Part shown: positions 1-9,145 of the stretch, piece by piece
Numbering within the stretch: the stretch's first letter is position 1
How the letters are laid out: the number at the start of each line of letters is the position of its first letter
The notes under the pieces: model-generated
Seen by the model: the letters and a program-made list of their open reading frames with translations, nothing else
The model's database searches: none
What the model was told of the DNA's origin: nothing
Made by a program: the position numbers and the translations under genes
NCBI GenBank assembly: GCA_964360585.1
Contig: CAYHXC010000006.1
Coordinates: 8,256-72,255 of the forward strand
Direction: 5' to 3'
DNA length: 64,000 nucleotides
DNA from: an uncultured Candidatus Saccharibacteria bacterium
Lineage (GTDB): Bacteria; Patescibacteriota; Minisyncoccia; UBA6257; 2-01-FULL-56-20

Positions 1-26
1 GAGTTTTCTGTCATACTGTTTTTTCT

Positions 27-335
27 ATGCAAGAATCCATCGGGAAAACGAAAAATGATTCCGTTTGGTATACTTACTGCATGAATAAATGGCTTAAATA
101 TATAGCGATGGCGGTTGTTATCCTTTTACCGTTTGTGGGGTTTTACTTGGGGATGATGTACCAGAGGATGAGTGTTCCGACAGAGAATACCTCAACGATC
201 CCTGAGGACATTTCTATTGACGAGTGTTTAGATCGTGTTGCAGCTAAATCTAAATATTCAGCAAGTAGCACTGAGCGTGCGGCCGAAGAGGCTATATGCT
301 ATAACTCTCCTTTGTCTAATCCCAATATCCAGTAA
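27..335 (+). CDS. hypothetical small membrane protein; the first ~15 codons lie inside repeat family A copy A1
   Basis: ORF track. One TM-like hydrophobic segment (AMAVVILLPFVGFYLGMM). The start ATGCAAGAATCCATCGGGAAAACGAAAAATGAT is the repeat A core. Confidence 0.35.
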   Translation: MQESIGKTKNDSVWYTYCMNKWLKYIAMAVVILLPFVGFYLGMMYQRMSVPTENTSTIPEDISIDECLDRVAAKSKYSASSTERAAEEAICYNSPLSNPNIQ

Positions 336-360
336 GTAGTACGGGGGAACGAACTCGCTA

Positions 361-395
361 AGGAAAACGAAAAATGATTTTGCTTAGTTGGTAAA
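361..395. repeat. repeat family A, truncated copy (A2)
   Basis: GGAAAACGAAAAATGATTTTG core is shared with A1 and A3-A6. Confidence 0.6.
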
Positions 396-424
396 TAAAA
401 AAGAGGACCTTTTTGAGATCCTCT
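392..424 (-). terminator. rho-independent terminator for the minus-strand zinc-ribbon gene
   Basis: Imperfect hairpin AGAGGATC...GGTCCTCT followed by a T-run on the minus strand, directly downstream of the ORF 444..695 stop. Confidence 0.5.
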
Positions 425-443
425 GCAATCTTTGCAACTCGAA

Positions 444-695
444 TCAGTGTTTCATCTTCGACCCGTCGTCAATCACTGCGTCGTCGATAGGCCACAATTC
501 TTCGGGGAGTTTCAGTATAGTTGTTTGGATGTAAACTTCCTTCTTGCATCCCAAACACTGGCCTTGGACCGTACAGTTTGGAGAGGTTTGACCAACGGCA
601 TAGAACACCATGCCCGGCACAACCATTTTCTTTTCCTTGCATTCAGGACAATCAACGAATGACTCTCGCATGCTATCCTCTAGAATCATGAGCAC
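444..695 (-). CDS. small zinc-ribbon protein (CPEC...CLGC)
   Basis: 83 aa with two CxxC pairs and a downstream terminator. The overlapping + ORF 432..662 is judged to be its shadow. Confidence 0.45.
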   Translation of the reverse strand: MLMILEDSMRESFVDCPECKEKKMVVPGMVFYAVGQTSPNCTVQGQCLGCKKEVYIQTTILKLPEELWPIDDAVIDDGSKMKH

Positions 696-793
696 CTCGT
701 TGGCTGTAGGGTAGTATAACTAGCTTAAGATAGGTCTAGCAACTTACAGTAACAATAATGGTTAATAGGATTTTGAGCTTGAAGCTTATCCTA

Positions 794-913
794 TACAAGA
801 ATGTGTTGGGAAAACGAAAAATGATTCTGTTTGGTTTCGGTACAGTTTTAATCGAAAAAGTATCAATGTTTGGGATTAGATGCCCTGTGAACAACTCATT
901 GACTTTTCATGGC
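794..913. repeat. repeat family A, long form (A3), with an outward promoter-like TTGACT-N17/18-TATACT at its 3' end
   Basis: About 120 bp nearly identical to 2857-2968: ...GGGAAAACGAAAAATGATTCTGTTTGGTTTCGGTACAGTTTTAATCGAAAAAGTATCAA...CCTGTGAACAACTCATTGACTTTTCAT. It lies upstream of NYN gene 999..1667. Confidence 0.8.
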
Positions 914-998
914 TTTCTTGTTTATATACTAATGAAAGTCACCTGCGCCTCTCGAAAGGGAGTGTGCAGGTTTTCGTTTTAGGGGTACTATACCCACT

Positions 999-1667
999 AT
1001 GGAACGAGTATCTATCCTTATTGACGGAAGTAATTTCTACCACTTAGTTCTCAAGAAACTTTCCCTAGAAGAGTCTCAGTTTAACTTCGACGCCTTTGCT
1101 AACTTTCTCGCCAACGGTAGAACCATCACTGAGAAAGGAAAGCGATTCTATACCGGCACAGTCAGAGAAAAAGAAGGGGATGCACGTAGTAGAGTAGCAA
1201 TGAGCAAGCAGACAGCTTTTTTTACTAAACTGAGTAAAGTTAACTGGGAGTTGAAAACGAGCAAGCTGAAAATTCGTTTCGAAGAAATTCATATAGATAA
1301 ACGAGTTGTTGAATACAAAGAATTGCAAAAAGCAGGTATTACCAGGATTACCGTCGAGAGATTGAGAGAAAAAGGAATTGATGTGAAATTAGCTACAGAC
1401 TTGATCGTGGGTGCGGTCGACGATCAATATGACACAGCCATTATCGTCAGTTCTGATTCCGATTTGATTCCTGCAATTGATTGGGTACGTTTGAGGAAGA
1501 AAAAGAAAGTTGAGTATATAGGATTCTCCGTTCTCGATGAAAAGAATCCTAAAAACTCAACAAGGCCGTTACTTTCTTTGATTAATAAAACAGATTTGCA
1601 AAGAACTTTAGTGAAATCAGACCTAGATTCGTTTATAGAGAAAAATCTTTTTACTAAACAGGTCTAG
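999..1667 (+). CDS. NYN/LabA-like (PIN-fold) domain protein, predicted RNase
   Basis: The motifs IDGSNFYH, GIDVKLATDL and SSDSDLIPAI are typical of the NYN/LabA family (PF01936). Confidence 0.75.
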   Translation: MERVSILIDGSNFYHLVLKKLSLEESQFNFDAFANFLANGRTITEKGKRFYTGTVREKEGDARSRVAMSKQTAFFTKLSKVNWELKTSKLKIRFEEIHIDKRVVEYKELQKAGITRITVERLREKGIDVKLATDLIVGAVDDQYDTAIIVSSDSDLIPAIDWVRLRKKKKVEYIGFSVLDEKNPKNSTRPLLSLINKTDLQRTLVKSDLDSFIEKNLFTKQV

Positions 1668-1674
1668 TTTTTTG

Positions 1675-1713
1675 ATGCAAGAATCCATCGGGAAAACGAA
1701 AAATGATCCCGTC
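1675..1713. repeat. repeat family A, short form (A4)
   Basis: ATGCAAGAATCCATCGGGAAAACGAAAAATGATCCCG is near-identical to A1 and A5. Confidence 0.8.
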
Positions 1714-1785
1714 TTTTTAATGGCTTTAGAGGGAGGCTATATACATATTTGACTCTCTTTGGTTTTACGAGAAGAATAAGGCGTT

Positions 1786-2304
1786 ATGAATAACCTACCG
1801 GAAGGAGATACTCCTAAGAATATTGCCTATATTGACGCCGCTAATCTAGATCGTGCTCTCCGGGATCAGCTTCATTGGCAGTTGGATTATGCCAAATTTC
1901 GGGTGTGGCTGAAAGAAAAGTACAAAGTTGAAAAAGCCTATATTTTCATTGGTCTCATCCCAAAGTATAAAAACCTGTACACGTATCTTCAGAACTGCGG
2001 TTTCACCCTTGCCTTCAAGGACGTAGTCTTTCAAAATGGGAAGCCAAAAGGGAACTGTGATTCAGATCTCTTGATGCAAGCCTCGAGCGATTTTTATGAA
2101 GGGAGATTAAAAGAAGCTGTTATCGTCGCGAGCGATGGGGATTATGCCCCATTAGTGAGGCTTCTTCATGATAGAAAAAGTTTGCGCGTGATTCTTTCTC
2201 CCACAAATCCCAAACAGTGCTCCCTTCTTTTAAAAAGAACTGGAGCTCCTATTGCCTATATAAAAGACCAAAGATTGATTTTAGAAGTGGCGAAAGGGTC
2301 TTAA
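1786..2304 (+). CDS. NYN/LabA-like domain protein (second paralog)
   Basis: IAYIDAANLDRAL, KGNCDSDL and ASDGDYAPLV match the conserved acidic residues of NYN nucleases. Confidence 0.7.
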   Translation: MNNLPEGDTPKNIAYIDAANLDRALRDQLHWQLDYAKFRVWLKEKYKVEKAYIFIGLIPKYKNLYTYLQNCGFTLAFKDVVFQNGKPKGNCDSDLLMQASSDFYEGRLKEAVIVASDGDYAPLVRLLHDRKSLRVILSPTNPKQCSLLLKRTGAPIAYIKDQRLILEVAKGS

Positions 2305-2482
2305 AATGAAAAGGCCCCCGATGCGTACGGATCGCATAGGGGTCCTCTTCGTGATGAATGCCTTTATACTATAGAGGTTTTTGTGAAAAGTCAATGATCT
2401 TCATGGTGGATAATTTTTGAGGGAAATTCACTGGGTTAATGGGATTTTTGGGATCTACGTTGCCTTTGATCTACTATTCATT

Positions 2483-2522
2483 ATGCAAGAATTTGTTGGG
2501 AAAACGAAAATTGATCCCGCTA
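2483..2522. repeat. repeat family A, short form (A5)
   Basis: ATGCAAGAATTTGTTGGGAAAACGAAAATTGATCCCGC. Confidence 0.8.
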
Positions 2523-2577
2523 CCGCTGGTTGACACTCTGGGGTGGGAGTGGTAGTTTTTCCTTCAGAAGAGGAGGG

Positions 2578-2820
2578 ATGAGGATGTCTTCGTCAGAAGA
2601 TCCGGCTACAGCCAGAAAAAGTGAAGCTATGCGTATAGCGGCCCAAGAAGGTCACTCTATCGGCAACTGGCGCTTAGAAGGAACCACGTGGCATGGTTCT
2701 TGCACGGAAAAGCAATGCTCTGCCAGGGTCTCGGTCGGTGCCGGACCCCACGGCGGTATTGCAGGCCCAACGATTCGTAAGGCTTGTCCGTATAAGTCGA
2801 GATCAACAACAGTACGATAA
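2578..2820 (+). CDS. hypothetical small Cys-containing protein
   Basis: GGAGGG RBS before ATGAGGATG. A stem-loop plus T-run (AACCGAcccggtcttcggagtTCGGTTTTTT) follows the stop. Confidence 0.35.
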   Translation: MRMSSSEDPATARKSEAMRIAAQEGHSIGNWRLEGTTWHGSCTEKQCSARVSVGAGPHGGIAGPTIRKACPYKSRSTTVR

Positions 2821-2856
2821 CCGACCCGGTCTTCGGAGTTCGGTTTTTTCTTTTTG

Positions 2857-2968
2857 TATCCATCGGGAAAACGAAAAATGATTCTGTTTGGTTTCGGTAC
2901 AGTTTTAATCGAAAAAGTATCAAAACCCAGGATAAGATACCTGTGAACAACTCATTGACTTTTCATCC
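2857..2968. repeat. repeat family A, long form (A6), with a TTGACT-N16-TATATA promoter-like 3' end
   Basis: Near-identical to A3 over about 110 bp. Confidence 0.8.
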
Positions 2969-3077
2969 ACGGCTGTATATAGTAAAAATGTGCTTGTGGG
3001 GCGTCAGCCCTATTCGGCTAATACATAAGCCGAAGGCAGGCACTGCAAAGATACCGCTTCATGCGGTGTTTTTGTTT

Positions 3078-3674
3078 TCAATCTTCATCGGGGTTACCTT
3101 TCATCGTAGTATAAAATTTGGTATCTCTGTATTTGTTCGTAGTCCAAGCTGGCACAACACTCCAGAAGTGCATCGTTCCATTATCGCCAATTTTTCTAAT
3201 AATCACTTTAATTTTGCGGTTATCAACTATAGCAATAATGCCCCAGTATTTTACAGGCCGACTTTTCCTTATTCTCTTTTTAAAACTCTTCACTTCAAAT
3301 TCCTTGAGTGTTTCTTCGAATTCTTGATAGGTGGTAGAATTTTTCACCAATTTAGCCGCTAACGGTAATAACTTAAACCTTAGGATTTGAGAGGGCCGTT
3401 CTCTTTCGGAATGAGATCCTTTGAAAACAATGTGATTGAATCCTTCGGCAGTGAAGTAAATCTCTTGATTAAAGGCAGGAGAAAATATTTTCCCAATGCC
3501 ATTGTAGAAACTATGAGCATCGTCTTTCAGTTTTTCGTAGTTCGATATGTCTTCCATTTGAAAGATACTACTGCACTCTGGTATTCCAATCAAACCAGCG
3601 AATAAAGACCTATCCCATATAGAGGAAAAATGAACTACCACGGACTTACGTCCGTGGTTTCCCGTACAGTTCAA
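3078..3674 (-). CDS. hypothetical protein (start uncertain; alternative ATG at 3557)
   Basis: ORF track. No family recognised and no clear RBS. Confidence 0.4.
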   Translation of the reverse strand: MNCTGNHGRKSVVVHFSSIWDRSLFAGLIGIPECSSIFQMEDISNYEKLKDDAHSFYNGIGKIFSPAFNQEIYFTAEGFNHIVFKGSHSERERPSQILRFKLLPLAAKLVKNSTTYQEFEETLKEFEVKSFKKRIRKSRPVKYWGIIAIVDNRKIKVIIRKIGDNGTMHFWSVVPAWTTNKYRDTKFYTTMKGNPDED

Positions 3675-3686
3675 GCTGCGCTTGTC

Positions 3687-3760
3687 CGCCTGTCATTGCG
3701 AGGGAGTAGAAGCGACCGTGGCAATCTAGATTGCTTCGTCATACTCGCAATGACAGGCGG
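3687..3760. repeat. REP-like extragenic palindrome, family GTCATTGCGAG...GTGGCAATCT (R1)
   Basis: ccgcctGTCATTGCGAGggagtagaagcgaccgtgGCAATCTAGATTGCttcgtcataCTCGCAATGACaggcgg. Perfect outer arms and an inner GCAATCTAGATTGC palindrome. Confidence 0.85.
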
Positions 3761-3812
3761 ATATGCCCCTTATCCACGGCCTAACGGCCGTGGTTTTGGC
3801 ATGGAACTTTGG

Positions 3813-3854: not shown

Positions 3855-4349
3855 TCAGGGCGGGAGGGGAACGCCTCGTCGGCGGTACTCGGCATAGTAC
3901 ACCTCGCTCACGGCGTCACCTCCGTCAAAGGGGAGCGCTTTCAGCCGGCGATCGAGATCGGCAATTGGCAACTTGGCCAGTTCTTTGGCCAGAGCTTCGA
4001 GATCGGGATCATTGATCGGAATGATGTCCCGTTTCTCGAGGATGTGCGAAGAACCGATTGGGATAAATCCAAGCTTATATTCGGGACCGGAAAGAACCGT
4101 AATTCTTCCTGATGTGTCGGGTATTTCCCCGACCACCGAGAGGGGGAGTACAAAGGCTCGAGTTTTCTTCTCGAACCATAAGTCTCGATCCGTGTCGTAC
4201 CACGCCAACCAAGAGAACTCTACCTTGAGAATTCCTCCGTCAAACGCAATCGAAGCTACCTCTCCTTGGAATTCGGCCACCTTTGGGTTTTTCGTCATGG
4301 CGAACTGTCCGCCAATAAACCGCTGGAGAAACTCATTTGAGAAGATCAT
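3855..4349 (-). CDS. hypothetical protein
   Basis: GGAGGTGG RBS precedes the second ATG (MIFSNEF...). Terminator downstream. Confidence 0.5.
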   Translation of the reverse strand: MIFSNEFLQRFIGGQFAMTKNPKVAEFQGEVASIAFDGGILKVEFSWLAWYDTDRDLWFEKKTRAFVLPLSVVGEIPDTSGRITVLSGPEYKLGFIPIGSSHILEKRDIIPINDPDLEALAKELAKLPIADLDRRLKALPFDGGDAVSEVYYAEYRRRGVPLPP

Positions 4350-5474: not shown

Positions 5475-7037
5475 ATGTCTGACTCTCATAGATTCAATCT
5501 CGCGACCATGAAAGGCAATAAGCCCTGGGCGGAAGCCGTGGCTGACGCGGTTATTGCGCAACATCCAAACGAAGAGATGTATACGGTGGCGGCGGGGATT
5601 AGTCCATCGGGTGTCGTTCACTTCGGCAACTTTCGGGACATTATGACCGCGCATATGGTCCGCGAAACATTGCAGGCGAAAGGCAAAAAAGCGCGACTCA
5701 TTTTCTCTTGGGACAATTTTGATCGTATGCGCAAAGTGCCGGCGGGCGTGCCGGAGTCCTTTTCAGAACATATAGGAAAACCGCTTTCTAAAGTGCCGGA
5801 TCCTTTCGGCGCGGTAGCTTCCTACGCCGAACATTTCCAGCAGCCGTTTGTCGAGGCCATGAAAAAGTTAGGCATAGAGATTGAGTATCGCAATCAGACG
5901 GAACTTTACGAAAGCGGTGTCTATGACGAAAAGATTAAACTCGCATTGCAACACCGAGAAGAAATCGCCGATGTGCTCCTCTCTTTTATGACCGAGAAAG
6001 CGATGACGGCGAAGGGGATTGATGCCGCCGAGTACCGCAAGAATTTCTATCCGATTTCCATCTACTCGCGATTTACCGGAAAAGATTCAACCAAGATTGT
6101 GTCATATGATGGCGATATGGGAGTGACCTACTACTGCGCCGAGACGAAGAAAAAAGATACGGTGGATTTACGTGAACATCACATTGCCAAATTGAATTGG
6201 AAGATGGACTGGCCAATGCGCTGGCAGTATGAGAATGTTCACTTTGAGCCGGGAGGGAGCGATCACGCCGCGCCTGGGAGCAGTTACGACGTTTCTACCG
6301 TAGTGGCAAAAAAAATCTTTCACATCGAACCGCCGATCTTTGTTGAGTATATGTTTGTGGGCATTCGGGGATTAGGAGCGAAGATGTCCGGTTCAAAAGG
6401 AAATGCGGTTTCGCCACTCGATCTCCTGGATATTTATGATCCGAAATTACTCTTGTGGTTGTACGAACGGAAAGACCCGAACCAGTCATTTGAACTGGCT
6501 TTTGATTCTGAAATTTACCGGCAATACGATGAGTACGATCGTGAACACGAAATTAATCAGGCCGTTTCTTTCCGGCAGTTGGTGGGTTTTGGTCAGATCG
6601 TTCAGTGGCAGGAGGATAAGCTCACGACCATCCTCGATCAACTTACATTGGATTACGATAAAAATGTAATTAGAGAGAGGCTGCCTTTGGCGAAAAGTTG
6701 GCTAGAGAAATACAACGCCGACGAGGCGGTCACTTTACGGAGCGAATCAAATCGAGAGTATATCGAAACACTAAACGAGAAGCAGAAGGCGCTTATTGCG
6801 CGTTTGCATGATGAACTTGCGACCAAACCGGAGGCCAGTATTACTGATCTCGAATTTCTGACCTACCAGATTCCCAAGGATCCGAATGTAGATGAAGCCA
6901 CACTCAAAAAAGAACAGCGGCAGTTTTTCAAAGACGTTTATAATTTGCTGATTGGAAAAGATACCGGACCGAGACTGGGAACGTTTCTCTGGGCTGCTGA
7001 TCGAAAAAAAGTGCTTGAACTCCTGAGCATTGATTAA
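5475..7037 (+). CDS. lysK: lysyl-tRNA synthetase, class I (archaeal type)
   Basis: HIGH-like VHFGNFRD and KMSKS-like KMSGSKGN class I motifs. About 520 aa, which fits class I LysRS. GGGGGA RBS. Confidence 0.8.
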   Translation: MSDSHRFNLATMKGNKPWAEAVADAVIAQHPNEEMYTVAAGISPSGVVHFGNFRDIMTAHMVRETLQAKGKKARLIFSWDNFDRMRKVPAGVPESFSEHIGKPLSKVPDPFGAVASYAEHFQQPFVEAMKKLGIEIEYRNQTELYESGVYDEKIKLALQHREEIADVLLSFMTEKAMTAKGIDAAEYRKNFYPISIYSRFTGKDSTKIVSYDGDMGVTYYCAETKKKDTVDLREHHIAKLNWKMDWPMRWQYENVHFEPGGSDHAAPGSSYDVSTVVAKKIFHIEPPIFVEYMFVGIRGLGAKMSGSKGNAVSPLDLLDIYDPKLLLWLYERKDPNQSFELAFDSEIYRQYDEYDREHEINQAVSFRQLVGFGQIVQWQEDKLTTILDQLTLDYDKNVIRERLPLAKSWLEKYNADEAVTLRSESNREYIETLNEKQKALIARLHDELATKPEASITDLEFLTYQIPKDPNVDEATLKKEQRQFFKDVYNLLIGKDTGPRLGTFLWAADRKKVLELLSID

Positions 7038-7075: not shown

Positions 7076-9145
7076 ATGATGGCAGATATTCCTCCCAAGG
7101 CTCAACGCATGACTGATGTTCGTCCGCCCGAGGCTTCACCGGGCGAAGGCCAGTTGCCAGCTGTTCTTGTTGATCAAAAGCCACAAAAAGAAGTTACTGC
7201 CGAACTTCGCGCGGCGCGAGCGCCCCGAAAAAAACTCAAGCCGCAGTTTCGTTACGCCGTGCATATCTTGATTGTTCTTGTTATTACACTTATCGTTGGG
7301 TTTGGCGTGATGCGGTTCAGTTTTTTAAGCGAGCAGATTTCACGGGCGATTGCCTCGGTTCGCATGATCGCGAAGCAGGGAATGCCGATTGCCAGTTTGC
7401 CGCAAACTGGTTCAGTGGTCTCGAAGGATACTCCCAGTCAGTTTACCTCGCTTCCAACCTCTACCTCGTTCACATCGCTTTTGCGTGGCGCCAGTCTTTC
7501 CGATATCTGGACGGTTTTTGCGCATGGCGGTGAGGCGCTTGGTCGTTTCCAAAAAACAGTTACCGACTATCAGGCCTTAAATACGGAAGTTGATGCTTTC
7601 TTGAATCAAGTTCCCGGTATTTTCCTTTCCAGCCACAAGGAGGGGCCGCTCCCATCATTACGGCGCATTCAGACAAATGTCCGGACGTTCCAGGCGCACA
7701 ATTCTGACCTTTCAACCTCGCTCACGTCGGTCAAGGATGCTTTGCCAATTGATTTTGGCGAGTACTTGGCCATGGGAAAGAGTTTGGATCGCATGTCAGA
7801 TTTTCTCGCGGCAAGCGTGCGATGGCTTGAGAAGCCGCATCATCTCGTCCTCGGATTCCAGAACTCTTCAGAGATGCGGCCATCCGGCGGATTTTTTGGC
7901 AGTTACGCCGAACTTAAAATGGCGAGCGGGACGATCTATGATCTCCAGGTTCACGACGTGACCGAAGCGGACAAAGTTTTTTCGGAGTCCATCGTGCCGC
8001 CCCAACCGCTTCAGTTCGTGACCAAAAACTGGCGCACGGCTGACGCCAACTGGTATTTTGATTTTCCCCACTCGGCTTCGCAAACTTTGGCCTTTTTAAA
8101 AAAATCCAATCTATATGCCTCGAGTACGCCGTTTGACGGATTTATCGCTGTCTCACCCCGGGTGCTTGAGGATGTTTTAAAAATTACCGGATCGATCGAG
8201 CTCAAGGATAGAAACATAACCTTGACCGCCGATAATTTCTTGCGTGAGATTCAGGGAGAGGTGGTTGCCAGTCGGGCGGATTCCGCCACCGCCCCAAAAA
8301 GTATTTTAGGCGAGATTGTTTCGGCGCTCGAGACGAGATTTATAAAACTGCCACCCGAGGATCGATCGGAACTTGCCGGACTTTTTCTTGATTGGGTGCG
8401 GTACAAGGACATCCAGGTTTTTATGACTGATCCTGAATTGCAGTCGCTCGCCCGTTACTTTGGCGCTGATGGCGGTGTGGTTTCAGGCTCGGCCGCACTG
8501 AACACTGAATACTTGGCGCTCGTTGATAGCACAATTGGCGGCGAGAAAACTAATTTGGTTCTCGATCGGACAATTACTTTCCGGGCGCAGATTGAGTCCG
8601 ACGGCAGTGTTCGTCACGAACTGAATATCGTCCGGAAGCATACAGGTGACAAAGAAAAAGAGCGCTGGTACCGCGTTCCGAACAAAACATACTTCCGCGC
8701 ACTCATCACCCCCGGCAGTGCCGTAACTGGCGCGAGTGGTTTTACCGAACGAACTTCGCCGGGACGATCGTATACCAAAGATTACGTTCGTGATTCAGGT
8801 CTGGTGGTCTACGAATCCACAATGAAAAATGTACTTGGCATTCCGTCCATCAAATTGTTTGAAGAGTCAGAGAAGATGAGTGTGGCCGGTTGGATCATAA
8901 CCGAGGTGGGAAAACAAAATAAAATGACGCTGACCTACGATTACCAACTACCGGAGAAACCGGACAACGGGGTGCCGTATCGTTTTGTTTTTGAAAAACA
9001 GGCCGGCACGGAAGGGGATTATAGTTTCGAAATTGACGCGCCGGTCGGCTATCATTTTAAGGAAAACCAACTGCCGATTTTTGAGTACAAGACGGAAGAC
9101 ATTCCAGGGAGGGTGGTGATGGATCTGACATTAGAAAAAATATAA
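7076..9145 (+). CDS. large hypothetical protein with a single N-terminal TM anchor
   Basis: 689 aa ORF with the TM segment HILIVLVITLIVGFGVM near the N-terminus. Family not recognised; a DUF4012-like assignment is possible but unverified. Confidence 0.6.
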   Translation: MMADIPPKAQRMTDVRPPEASPGEGQLPAVLVDQKPQKEVTAELRAARAPRKKLKPQFRYAVHILIVLVITLIVGFGVMRFSFLSEQISRAIASVRMIAKQGMPIASLPQTGSVVSKDTPSQFTSLPTSTSFTSLLRGASLSDIWTVFAHGGEALGRFQKTVTDYQALNTEVDAFLNQVPGIFLSSHKEGPLPSLRRIQTNVRTFQAHNSDLSTSLTSVKDALPIDFGEYLAMGKSLDRMSDFLAASVRWLEKPHHLVLGFQNSSEMRPSGGFFGSYAELKMASGTIYDLQVHDVTEADKVFSESIVPPQPLQFVTKNWRTADANWYFDFPHSASQTLAFLKKSNLYASSTPFDGFIAVSPRVLEDVLKITGSIELKDRNITLTADNFLREIQGEVVASRADSATAPKSILGEIVSALETRFIKLPPEDRSELAGLFLDWVRYKDIQVFMTDPELQSLARYFGADGGVVSGSAALNTEYLALVDSTIGGEKTNLVLDRTITFRAQIESDGSVRHELNIVRKHTGDKEKERWYRVPNKTYFRALITPGSAVTGASGFTERTSPGRSYTKDYVRDSGLVVYESTMKNVLGIPSIKLFEESEKMSVAGWIITEVGKQNKMTLTYDYQLPEKPDNGVPYRFVFEKQAGTEGDYSFEIDAPVGYHFKENQLPIFEYKTEDIPGRVVMDLTLEKI

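Follow-up and report, generated by a model that had tools for sequence, protein, structure and literature searches.

A short, asymmetric, non-coding repeat, here termed U, punctuates a low-GC gene island between greA and lysS on a contig from Hainich groundwater, occupying 11 of the 14 intergenic gaps with one copy each and always on the + strand. Our best, still tentative, explanation is that U marks the junctions of an integron-like array of cassettes and is recognised there by a protein, its sequence being specific to the lineage. The host belongs to the Patescibacteria, which have tiny genomes and in which the acquisition and exchange of accessory genes are little understood. The locus is a fixed chromosomal slot whose single-gene, self-expressing cassettes are almost completely replaced between close relatives, and the directional sequence set between the cassettes is under strong constraint and varies from lineage to lineage.

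The repeat and its array

The window, which is the whole 64,000-nucleotide stretch analysed, contains six matches to the U core, GGGAAAACGAAAAATGATYC, at positions 42, 361, 808, 1690, 2498 and 2865 (window 1–3000), all on the + strand and with 0–2 mismatches. Only 0.06 matches are expected, six were reached in 0 of 100 shuffles, and the remainder of the 64 kb holds no further core. The original prediction had placed six core copies in 3 kb, which is borne out in position; the count stands for the window and falls short in scope, since the window edge cuts the array (window position 1 is position 8989 of the parent contig, L121) and five more copies to the left bring the total to 11. These span 6.6 kb of the island, an ~8.4-kb segment that is flanked by greA and lysS and ends before a conserved 164-aa gene and lysS. 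Successive copies are 319–1175 nt apart with genes in between; coding sequence is free of U, the first copy of the array overlapping the end of a HEPN-like gene. The polarity of U is unaffected by gene direction, 5 of the 14 island genes being on the minus strand. An association specific to NYN genes, as had been proposed, is not upheld, the 11 copies flanking 14 unrelated genes.

In a metagenome collection, the 20-mer occurs in multiple copies on the Hainich contig only, the other matches being five singletons with unrelated flanks, and in one Hainich assembly of that collection it is carried by this contig alone. The shorter 17-mer GGAAAACGAAAAATGAT returned at least 120 matches in a genome collection, each single and at chance level. 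Viral contigs scanned for U and for a second repeat, U', described below, and phage genomes searched by BLAST, gave no match. A MITE that carries a promoter, as had been suggested, or some other small transposable element would account for a short, non-coding, multi-copy sequence with a promoter on its long form. We consider it highly improbable: terminal inverted repeats are absent, inverted repetition being limited to a 6-bp AGAATC/GATTCT in about half of the copies, there is no consistent target-site duplication, and all 11 copies lie on one strand within 6.6 kb; neither the rest of the 64 kb, nor the part of the sample's assembly contained in the collection, nor the viral contigs hold dispersed copies.

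The features of the window are, from left to right:

27..66 (core 42-61), +: U copy c9030
66-74, +: predicted extended -10 promoter TGGTATACT
82-335, +: membrane protein MNKW-102, with a probable leaderless start at the ATG at 82
346..385 (core 361-380), +: U copy c9349, left arm decayed, centre intact
402..689, -: intrinsic terminator (402-424) and zinc-ribbon gene of 81 aa (444-689)
793..930 (core 808-827), +: U copy c9796, long form, with a ~70-nt spacer and then a TCATTGACTTTTCAT promoter box (896-930)
932-990, +: structured leader with hairpin and U-run (z = -5.3)
999-1667, +: NYN-222 (PF01936; also matches the PADLOC candidate HEC-09)
1675..1714 (core 1690-1709), +: U copy c10678, beginning 8 nt past the NYN-222 stop codon
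1738-1777, +: promoter module P1 (TATATACATATTTGACTC...AAGAAT)
1786-2304, +: NYN-172 (PF01936)
2306..2397, -: NYN cassette 3' module (z = -5.3), with a bidirectional terminator hairpin at ~2312-2350 and, at 2394-2366, a reverse promoter box
2483..2522 (core 2498-2517), +: U copy c11486, one mismatch
2530-2558, +: promoter module P3 (TTGACAC...GTGGTAGTTT), then a GGAGGG ribosome-binding site
2584-2820, +: Cys-containing gene of 78 aa, followed by a weak terminator hairpin with T-run (within 2530..2856)
2857..2985 (core 2865-2884), +: U copy c11853, long form, with promoter TTGACT-17-TATAGT (2955-2983)
2990..3077, +: candidate small RNA of ~90 nt (z = -7.1), driven by the long-form promoter and ended by a strong intrinsic terminator
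3078..3674, -: last island gene, 198 aa, of no confident family
3855-4349: conserved 164-aa gene beyond the island end

The cassettes are mostly single-gene and occasionally multi-gene, and each has its own predicted promoter (often extended -10 and leaderless) and usually its own terminator; all minus-strand genes have hairpin terminators. In most cassettes the predicted promoter lies downstream of the U core, at a variable distance (overlapping, 12, 39 or 71 nt), and in two of them U overlaps the -35 region of an extended -10 promoter. Three cores are enclosed by convergent gene ends, one being that of c9349, which has no + promoter downstream. Five of the 11 copies start 5–25 nt past the stop codon of a + gene that lacks its own intrinsic terminator. 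A shared leader is unlikely, the core being mostly upstream of the promoter and three copies standing where genes converge; a common operator is a live rival.

Both large genes of the window are NYN genes, as predicted, scoring 59.7 and 47.2 bits against a Pfam gathering cut-off of 24.2 (PF01936; E 6e-16 and 4e-12). A third paralogue left of the window makes three NYN nucleases in the island, which also encodes a HicAB toxin pair, and with HicA and a HEC-09-like NYN among the neighbours the suggested toxin- or defence-type setting finds support. The hairpin and reverse promoter box of the NYN 3' module predict an antisense RNA of ~55 nt, and the module is kept beside homologues in three other lineages; the candidate small RNA at 2990..3077 has no Rfam match. 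Promoter module P3 is also present in the relatives L148, L150 and L153.

The long copies, at 786-913 and 2843-2968, match each other over 77 nt with 90% identity and over 27 nt with 100%. Of the promoters placed at their ends, only that of the second is a good one (TTGACT-17-TATAGT, sigma-70-like, 10 of 12 matches); the box of the first (899-930) has poorer spacing or a poorer -10 and is unlisted by the promoter scan. The ATGCAAGAAT... openings and the 102-aa open reading frame at 27..335 are present as claimed. The idea that the repeat supplies start codons (MQESIGKTK) has to be given up: the coding is incidental and its frame inconsistent between copies, c6338 reading GTG CAA TAA, c8502 being frame-shifted, c5269 and c11853 lacking a start, and the two MNKW paralogues differing in reading frame through the U core. 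The annotated start at 27 is likely an incidental upstream extension and the ATG at 82, which stands 7 nt past TGGTATACT, the likelier start; one gene caller (L123) likewise puts the start of the 102-aa gene downstream. What persists of the original prediction is a modular repeat family, non-coding, that delimits cassette-like units and carries a promoter box in its long form.

Sequence constraint without structure

U contains an asymmetric 17-nt centre that is near-invariant, with 2 mismatches in 187 positions over the 11 copies. In the same copies the adjoining arms carry 42/165 and 68/165 mismatches, together 110/330 (centre versus arms, Fisher p = 2e-22), so that the centre is conserved about 30 times better. 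It is intact in c5269, c7782, c8502 and c9349 despite the missing + promoter downstream, and also where the arms of U copies have decayed.

The repeat has neither dyad symmetry nor a hairpin. Folded as 50-mers with RNA energy parameters, the 11 copies gave z-scores from -1.7 to +1.4, around 0, with no common structure; a structured-RNA or attC-like hairpin, for which stems GAATC/GATTC and CGGGA/TYCCG can be drawn by eye, was accordingly rejected, folding giving no signal. Rfam searches returned only a tRNA-Gly in the window at the gathering threshold and, over the whole array at E<=5, one chance-level match unrelated to U; a tRNA-derived att origin was likewise discarded, the searches giving no tRNA-like match for U. 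A small RNA complementary to U was also rejected: an antisense copy of U with up to 3 mismatches was not found in the 64 kb, and complementarity, judged by eye, is limited to a 10-nt TTTTCGTTTT in a terminator tail.

An RNA role on the + strand might be considered. In read-through transcripts U could signal processing or 3'-end formation, perhaps as a substrate of the island's NYN proteins, or it could be an SD-like GGGA plus ATG opening a mini-ORF of 5–9 codons. NYN domains are typically RNases, and the island encodes NYN proteins; five copies lie in the would-be 3' UTR of the upstream + gene; U has a near-invariant ATG (9 of 11 copies); and six copies open short reading frames (MILSSL*, MISVLS*, MILLSW*, MILLNN*, MIPSF* and MIPFGILTA*). 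The mini-ORFs of three of these copies are not independent, because they share common ancestry. Against this role stand the lack of a stable or common fold and of any Rfam match, the position of several copies upstream of predicted promoters or past terminators, and the repeat U', which is pyrimidine-rich and has no comparable mini-ORF; we judge it quite improbable. Most likely the centre is recognised through its linear sequence, by a protein or guide RNA that acts in trans from another locus.

Homology breakpoints in the array and cassette turnover between relatives

All five pairs of copies with a common flank show homology on one side of U that is unmatched on the other side. The NYN-194 and NYN-172 cassettes have non-coding flanks that are 80–83% identical, while their proteins are just 34% identical; between MNKW-102 and c6338/MNKW-186, similarity covers the repeat, the promoter and the opening 36 codons, and nothing more. 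Replicate Hainich assemblies carry an identical array with no cassette polymorphism between them, and other variant look-ups gave only short contigs terminating at repeats. The sole variant junction, on contig L124 at a coverage of 2 (78-aa gene to NYN-222), could be an assembly artefact, because the crossover falls in 58 nt that are identical between both long copies.

Between lineages, turnover of the island is extensive. Four relatives with LysRS 78–80% identical keep the flanking backbone genes and differ almost entirely in the small island genes, and among ~60 island genes compared, five pairs are common to different islands, in a patchy fashion. The greA–lysS interval differs in all five of five related lineages, and in a relative at 73% housekeeping genes occupy the slot. 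The same slot holds an unrelated repeat, U' (GCCGCACCCTTCGTCCTTCC), immediately 5' of CCGGTTTGG(TATACT), with nine + copies in L148, where it is placed between terminator and promoter, and two in L146. The U' sequences of these lineages are identical over 34 of 34 nt, yet their LysRS are 78% identical and their cassette genes do not overlap; similarity between U and U', on both strands, is not significant. L146 and L150 differ by the gain or loss of one 74-aa cassette, the breakpoints falling within P3, itself a repeated promoter module. A NYN-172-type cassette of another lineage, encoding the same protein throughout, has left and right neighbours that differ by sample, and its left-side homology breaks where an 80-nt direct repeat starts; this repeat (L132) aligns weakly with the neighbouring tRNA-Gln. 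Cassettes also turn over in L150 and L153, neither of which has a U-type repeat, and U is therefore not required for turnover.

These data bear on the view of U as a passive by-product, an intergenic segment copied by local duplication or unequal crossing-over, kept similar by gene conversion and devoid of function. Tandem duplication would give direct orientation automatically, whole intergenic modules (P1, P3, terminators) are likewise repeated, and relatives lacking U still replace cassettes. This origin is nevertheless decidedly unlikely, as conversion tracts would homogenise the arms along with the far better conserved centre, U' is preserved over 34 nt between lineages at 78% LysRS identity, and the genes in the cassettes are either highly diverged or not related at all.

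Junction element or regulatory site

One U lies at the left boundary of each cassette, on the same strand regardless of gene direction, and under the junction reading cassettes would duplicate, reassort, and come and go as whole units, with breakpoints in repeated intergenic modules, namely U, promoter modules and terminator modules. We infer that U may act as a recombination site or docking point, beyond merely marking the cassette border. U lacks dyad symmetry and a hairpin, so a tyrosine or serine recombinase, or attC-type folding, is no obvious fit. Pfam scans detected no recombinase (Phage_integrase or other) in the 20.6-kb parent locus or in the islands of the relatives, and a homologue search with the conserved border gene g12843, a candidate partner, returned g12843 alone.

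A point against the junction reading is that most U copies stand just 5' of + promoters, which would equally suit a regulatory site. The main rival, which we rate as somewhat unlikely, holds that U regulates in cis and directionally, in the manner of a stoperator or insulator, with a putative monomeric DNA-binding protein on the centre; rightward transcription would be blocked or controlled at cassette borders, so that cassettes rely on their own promoters, and U' would be a site of different specificity in sister lineages. It draws on U being asymmetric, 16–17 nt long, co-oriented and lineage-specific, properties likewise found in the stoperators of Cluster A mycobacteriophages (PMC6550527, PMC9283540). 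The copies just past + genes without a terminator, whereas minus genes have hairpins, also fit, as do the overlap with the -35 region in two cassettes and the placement of U' in L148. The varying distance between U and promoter speaks against it; the islands have almost no genes in common and no conserved candidate regulator; and such a site would by itself leave unexplained why homology blocks always switch partners at U.

A more specific form of capture, which we hold to be unlikely, would make U and U' the recombination sites of an undescribed Patescibacteria cassette-capture system, an integron analogue at a greA–lysS hotspot. Expression-ready single-gene cassettes (toxin–antitoxin, NYN and other accessory genes) would be stockpiled there, a linear, asymmetric, lineage-specific site and a trans-encoded recombinase or guide RNA replacing the folded attC and IntI.

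If U is a recombination site, the locus would capture genes much as an integron does, by a mechanism of a new type; if U has a regulatory role, it would be a chromosomal counterpart of phage stoperators. On either reading the 17-nt site offers a concrete, testable handle on how the genomes of an uncultivated phylum stay plastic and control their genes.

Comparison with known systems

SCC composite islands at orfX and Xer-dependent IMEX arrays at dif are tandem integrated elements bounded by direct att repeats. The U array may resemble both in its succession of units set apart by direct copies of one short site, beginning at the 3' end of a gene (here the HEPN-like gene); it differs in its units, which measure 0.3–1.2 kb and hold a single gene. 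No dif/Xer-like ATAA...TTAT arm pattern was seen in U by eye. Pneumococcal BOX and neisserial Correia elements are, like U, modular non-coding intergenic repeats able to bring promoter or terminator activity; they are dispersed genome-wide in both orientations with inverted repeats or stable folds, whereas U is local, confined to one strand and unstructured. In type III toxin–antitoxin systems of the ToxIN kind, tandem head-to-tail RNA repeats directly precede the endoribonuclease toxin, unlike the U copies, which are separated by genes.

Cluster A mycobacteriophage stoperators are numerous short asymmetric sites, mostly in one orientation and often away from promoters, with a consensus that is lineage-specific and co-varies with the cognate binding protein (PMC6550527; PMC9283540). 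U is similar in number, brevity, asymmetry and single orientation, and often lies near gene ends. Stoperators, in contrast, track the local direction of transcription, and the phage genome in which they lie also encodes their repressor, whereas U keeps its orientation array-wide, even by minus-strand genes, on a chromosomal island.

To our knowledge, integrons have not been established in the Patescibacteria, and a literature search on integrons in this phylum found nothing relevant. In sedentary chromosomal integrons and CALINs, every cassette has a repeat of the same orientation; the repeats are homogeneous inside one array and different between lineages, and CALINs, with two or more attC sites, lack an adjacent integrase (PMC4889954; 10.1101/2024.07.02.601686). 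The U array is likewise at a fixed chromosomal place, with mostly single-gene cassettes bearing one co-oriented repeat each, a content that turns over between relatives and is rich in toxin- or defence-type genes, and no adjacent integrase. Integron cassettes are mostly promoterless, co-oriented and expressed from a common Pc; here the cassettes have their own predicted promoters and terminators, with 5 of 14 genes on the opposite strand. In contrast to attC, an imperfect palindrome folding into a single-stranded hairpin with R''-L''/L'-R' boxes and extrahelical bases, U is linear and asymmetric, and its sequence, not its structure, is conserved; the attC motif GTTRRRY is not conserved in it, 9 of 11 copies reading CATCGGG or similar. 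The layout of U resembles that of an integron, yet the repeat itself is not an integron site.

An array of proposed junction repeats in a low-GC island

Six copies of a repeat core had been predicted in the first 3 kb of the window, and this is borne out: the core GGGAAAACGAAAAATGATYC occurs at 42, 361, 808, 1690, 2498 and 2865, always on the + strand and with 0-2 mismatches, against 0.06 matches expected by chance (0 of 100 shuffles gave six). The rest of the 64 kb, searched on both strands, contains no other copy. Also confirmed as originally described are a pair of long copies (786-913 and 2843-2968), the ATGCAAGAAT openings, the 102-aa open reading frame and both NYN genes. Of the promoter boxes attributed to the long copies, only that of the second is a good sigma-70-like match (TTGACT-17-TATAGT at 2955-2983).

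A look-up of the NYN protein led to near-identical contigs in assemblies of Hainich groundwater (well H51, 0.1-0.2 um filters); by the names that homologues of LysRS and of the NYN protein carry, the organism belongs to Patescibacteria / Parcubacteria. On one of these contigs, L121, window position 1 corresponds to 8989, the overlap is without mismatches, and the array comprises 11 copies of the ~40-base repeat, here called U, from L121 5269 to 11853, all on the + strand and spaced 319-1175 nt apart; the window truncates the array, and the feature is larger than could be seen from it. Copies are named by L121 position (c5269 to c11853). The array segment has a GC content of 40-44%, compared with 47-55% across the remainder of the window. 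A single U lies in each of 11 of the island's 14 intergenic gaps and none in coding sequence, and U always forms the left border of its cassette, 5' of + strand genes and just past the terminator of - strand genes. The feature is genuine, with solid statistical support.

Table. The island and its surroundings (cassette genes named by protein length in aa)
Upstream of array: 16S rRNA gene 3' part, then group I intron with LAGLIDADG-type ORF (L121 1-898 and 1014-1819, ~4 kb upstream of the island); response-regulator gene; rplS; greA
L121 4462-4596, left of window, between greA and island, exactly at the island's left border: 12-bp perfect inverted repeat CTTGAATCCCGG ... CCGGGATTCAAG around ~100 nt; fold z = -5.3
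Interval 1: 136-aa gene (-), HicB-like gene, then uncalled HicA toxin ORF (L121 6091-6318, left of window; 75 aa, overlapping the HicB-like gene end; Pfam 27.7 bits, cut-off 27)
Interval 2: membrane protein MNKW-186
Interval 3: NYN-194
Interval 4: 194-aa gene (-)
Interval 5: 116-aa gene (-)
Interval 6: MNKW-102
Interval 7: zinc-ribbon gene (-)
Interval 8: NYN-222 (PADLOC candidate HEC-09 match, E = 1e-16)
Interval 9: NYN-172
Interval 10: 78-aa gene
Interval 11: promoter driving a predicted ~90-nt structured RNA
Downstream of array: conserved 164-aa gene, lysS (class I), DUF4012 gene, lepA
Window 3625-3805: very strongly structured intergenic element, long hairpins nested one in another (-91.6 kcal/mol, z = -9), holding both SNPs (n = 2), the sole ones seen near the island between replicate assemblies

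Cassette genes and their signals

Promoters and terminators were predicted by consensus. The two MNKW proteins have their first 36 residues in common and nothing beyond, and each gene has a predicted extended -10 promoter, TGGTATACT, 7 nt upstream of its ATG (leaderless). One promoter module, P1 (TTGACT/AAGAAT), is predicted ahead of NYN-194 and NYN-172, another, P3 (TTGACAC...GTGGTAGTTT plus GGAGG), ahead of the 78-aa gene, and a hairpin-plus-T-run terminator behind every minus-strand gene; the cassettes thus look self-sufficient for expression. Pairwise identity among the three NYN proteins is only 25-34%, and NYN-194 and NYN-172, at 34% amino-acid identity, have flanks that are 80-83% identical: the non-coding modules are far better conserved than the genes between them.

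The candidate RNA of interval 11 (window 2990-3077, +), behind the TTGACT-17-TATAGT of the second long repeat, has a predicted three-way fold and ends in a strong terminator (z = -7.1); nothing in Rfam matches it. The NYN-222 leader (window 932-990, +) has a strong hairpin followed by UUUUCGUUUU directly 5' of the start codon (z = -5.3) and looks like an attenuator.

The NYN-172 family is very widespread in Patescibacteria (1634 matches at E<=1e-5, the best 120 of the 1634 at 65-80% identity), and its members are found in unrelated contexts. A 3' module travels with NYN-172/194-type genes and is kept across distant Patescibacteria lineages; it consists of a terminator hairpin whose stem shows compensatory changes, the sequence GGGTCYTCTTCGTGRTGA, and a -10 box in reverse orientation (TATAGT), at the following sites:

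Window 2306-2397 (-)
L121 7590-7690
L132 6545-6615
L135 about 585-640
L137 about 6545-6600

The module predicts a ~55-nt antisense RNA overlapping the gene end and may act as a regulator of antisense or antitoxin-like type. The toxin or defence role first proposed for the NYN genes is plausible for these candidates, and the contexts of their homologues are not obvious defence islands. In one distant lineage the protein of an NYN-172-type cassette is unchanged between samples in which both left and right neighbours differ, and the left homology ends where an 80-nt direct repeat begins. This repeat lies 5' of three successive genes, the NYN homologue included (L132 5897, 6744 and 8316; L134 1033-1106); the cassette adjoins a tRNA-Gln gene in one sample, and the repeat aligns weakly with the tRNA 3' half.

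Constraint on the repeat

The proposal that U supplies start codons fails: the MQESIGKTK frame is broken in c6338 (GTG CAA TAA) and shifted in c8502, c5269 and c11853 have no start, and the MNKW paralogues differ in frame through the core. With a frame inconsistent among copies, U was rejected as coding sequence. No stable or common fold was detected, all 11 copies folding no better than shuffles, and no Rfam family matched even at E<=5; a signal acting at the RNA level fits less well and is very unlikely. An attC site was likewise rejected (no fold, no integrase nearby). A MITE is hardly credible, the repeat having no real inverted ends or target-site duplication, occurring in one orientation, and showing no dispersed copies in the 64 kb, the same sample's assembly or the viral contigs searched. 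Nor is the repeat NYN-specific; the idea of a cassette is the part of the original prediction that gains support.

In the 17-nt centre GGAAAACGAAAAATGAT, 2 of 187 positions are mismatched, compared with 42/165 and 68/165 in the 15-nt arms (Fisher p = 2e-22). Because the centre is intact in c9349, although the left arm there is unrecognisable, and in four copies without a downstream + promoter, three of them between convergent gene ends, the pattern favours selection acting directly on a linear, asymmetric site and speaks against plain inheritance by duplication; a passive relic fits less well and seems unlikely. One pair of copies has a common left flank (c7782/c11486) and four have a common right flank (c6338/c9030, c6927/c10678, c7782/c9349, c9796/c11853); in none of these five pairs does the homology continue on the far side of the repeat, so that U is a constant homology breakpoint.

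Island turnover in relatives

Syntenic loci were located through LysRS homologues at 78-80% identity in four relatives (L146, L148, L150, L153). The backbone flanking the island is kept in part or in full in all four, the interval upstream of lysS contains different small genes in each, and five pairs among ~60 genes are common between islands, each from a different lineage pair. In a 73% relative (L151) the place of the island is taken by groES/groEL and further housekeeping genes. A second repeat, U' (GATTTTTGCCGCACCCTTCGTCCTTCC; nine + strand copies in L148, two in L146), occupies the slot equivalent to that of U, directly before CCGGTTTGG(TATACT...ATG), and has no significant similarity to U on either strand. 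Between L146 and L148, U' agrees at 34/34 positions, despite 78% LysRS identity and no cassette gene in common. The promoter module occurs in both L150 and L153, and the terminator module in L150 as well; no U-type repeat was found in either lineage. In one clean cassette gain or loss, 120-aa and 62-aa genes adjoin in L146 and have a 74-aa gene between them in L150; at this point L146 combines the two L150 junctions into one hybrid, with the switch within the repeated P3 module.

The promoter module TTGACAC-N-GTGGTA(G/T)TTT was seen at window 2530-2558, L148 1220, 3906, 5187, 6060 and 7530, L150 2370, 6658, 7127 and 7445, and L153 about 385-420. Its spacer often forms a short palindrome, the sequence of which varies (CACTC/GAGTG, CACCT/AGGTG, CACCC/GGGTG); this may serve as an operator, or may simply follow from the -35 and extended -10 consensus. 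The terminator module AAGTCCCGCGATAAYATCAACGGGCTTTTTT, whose loop is conserved, stands behind many of the relatives' cassettes (eight copies in L148 1618-8664; L150 6630 and 7097) and is absent from the window. L121 5640-5679, 1.2 kb into the island, and L146 2387-2426, right after greA, are 95% identical over 40 nt; the surrounding genes differ.

Interpretation

On these data, the repeated intergenic modules would be the seams of a cassette island, and U a seam element that is specific to the lineage, constrained in sequence and of one polarity throughout the array. A recombination junction is the reading we tentatively rank first, because it accounts at once for a polarity blind to the direction of the genes, for a single copy per cassette, for the breakpoints, for the restriction of U to the island and for the turnover in relatives. 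Against it, the site has no symmetry, the genes of the parent locus around the array include no detected recombinase, replicate assemblies show no polymorphism, and cassette turnover is also seen in relatives without U. On the single variant contig (L124, 1989 bp, coverage 2), the 78-aa gene is joined to NYN-222 through a hybrid long repeat, with the crossover in a 58-nt identical stretch; this junction is that expected from a 2057-bp circle or tandem duplication between the long copies, and could equally be a repeat-induced mis-assembly.

The main rival, a stoperator-like directional regulator or insulator site (compare PMC6550527, PMC9283540), is somewhat doubtful and not mutually exclusive with a recombination junction. 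Three points favour it: five copies begin 5-25 nt past the stop codon of + genes without a terminator of their own, U and the -35 region overlap at the MNKW promoters, and U' sits between terminator and promoter. A small part of the probability goes to none of the readings named here.

Mechanistically the island is integron-like, and its junction element, U, resembles none with which this analysis could match it.
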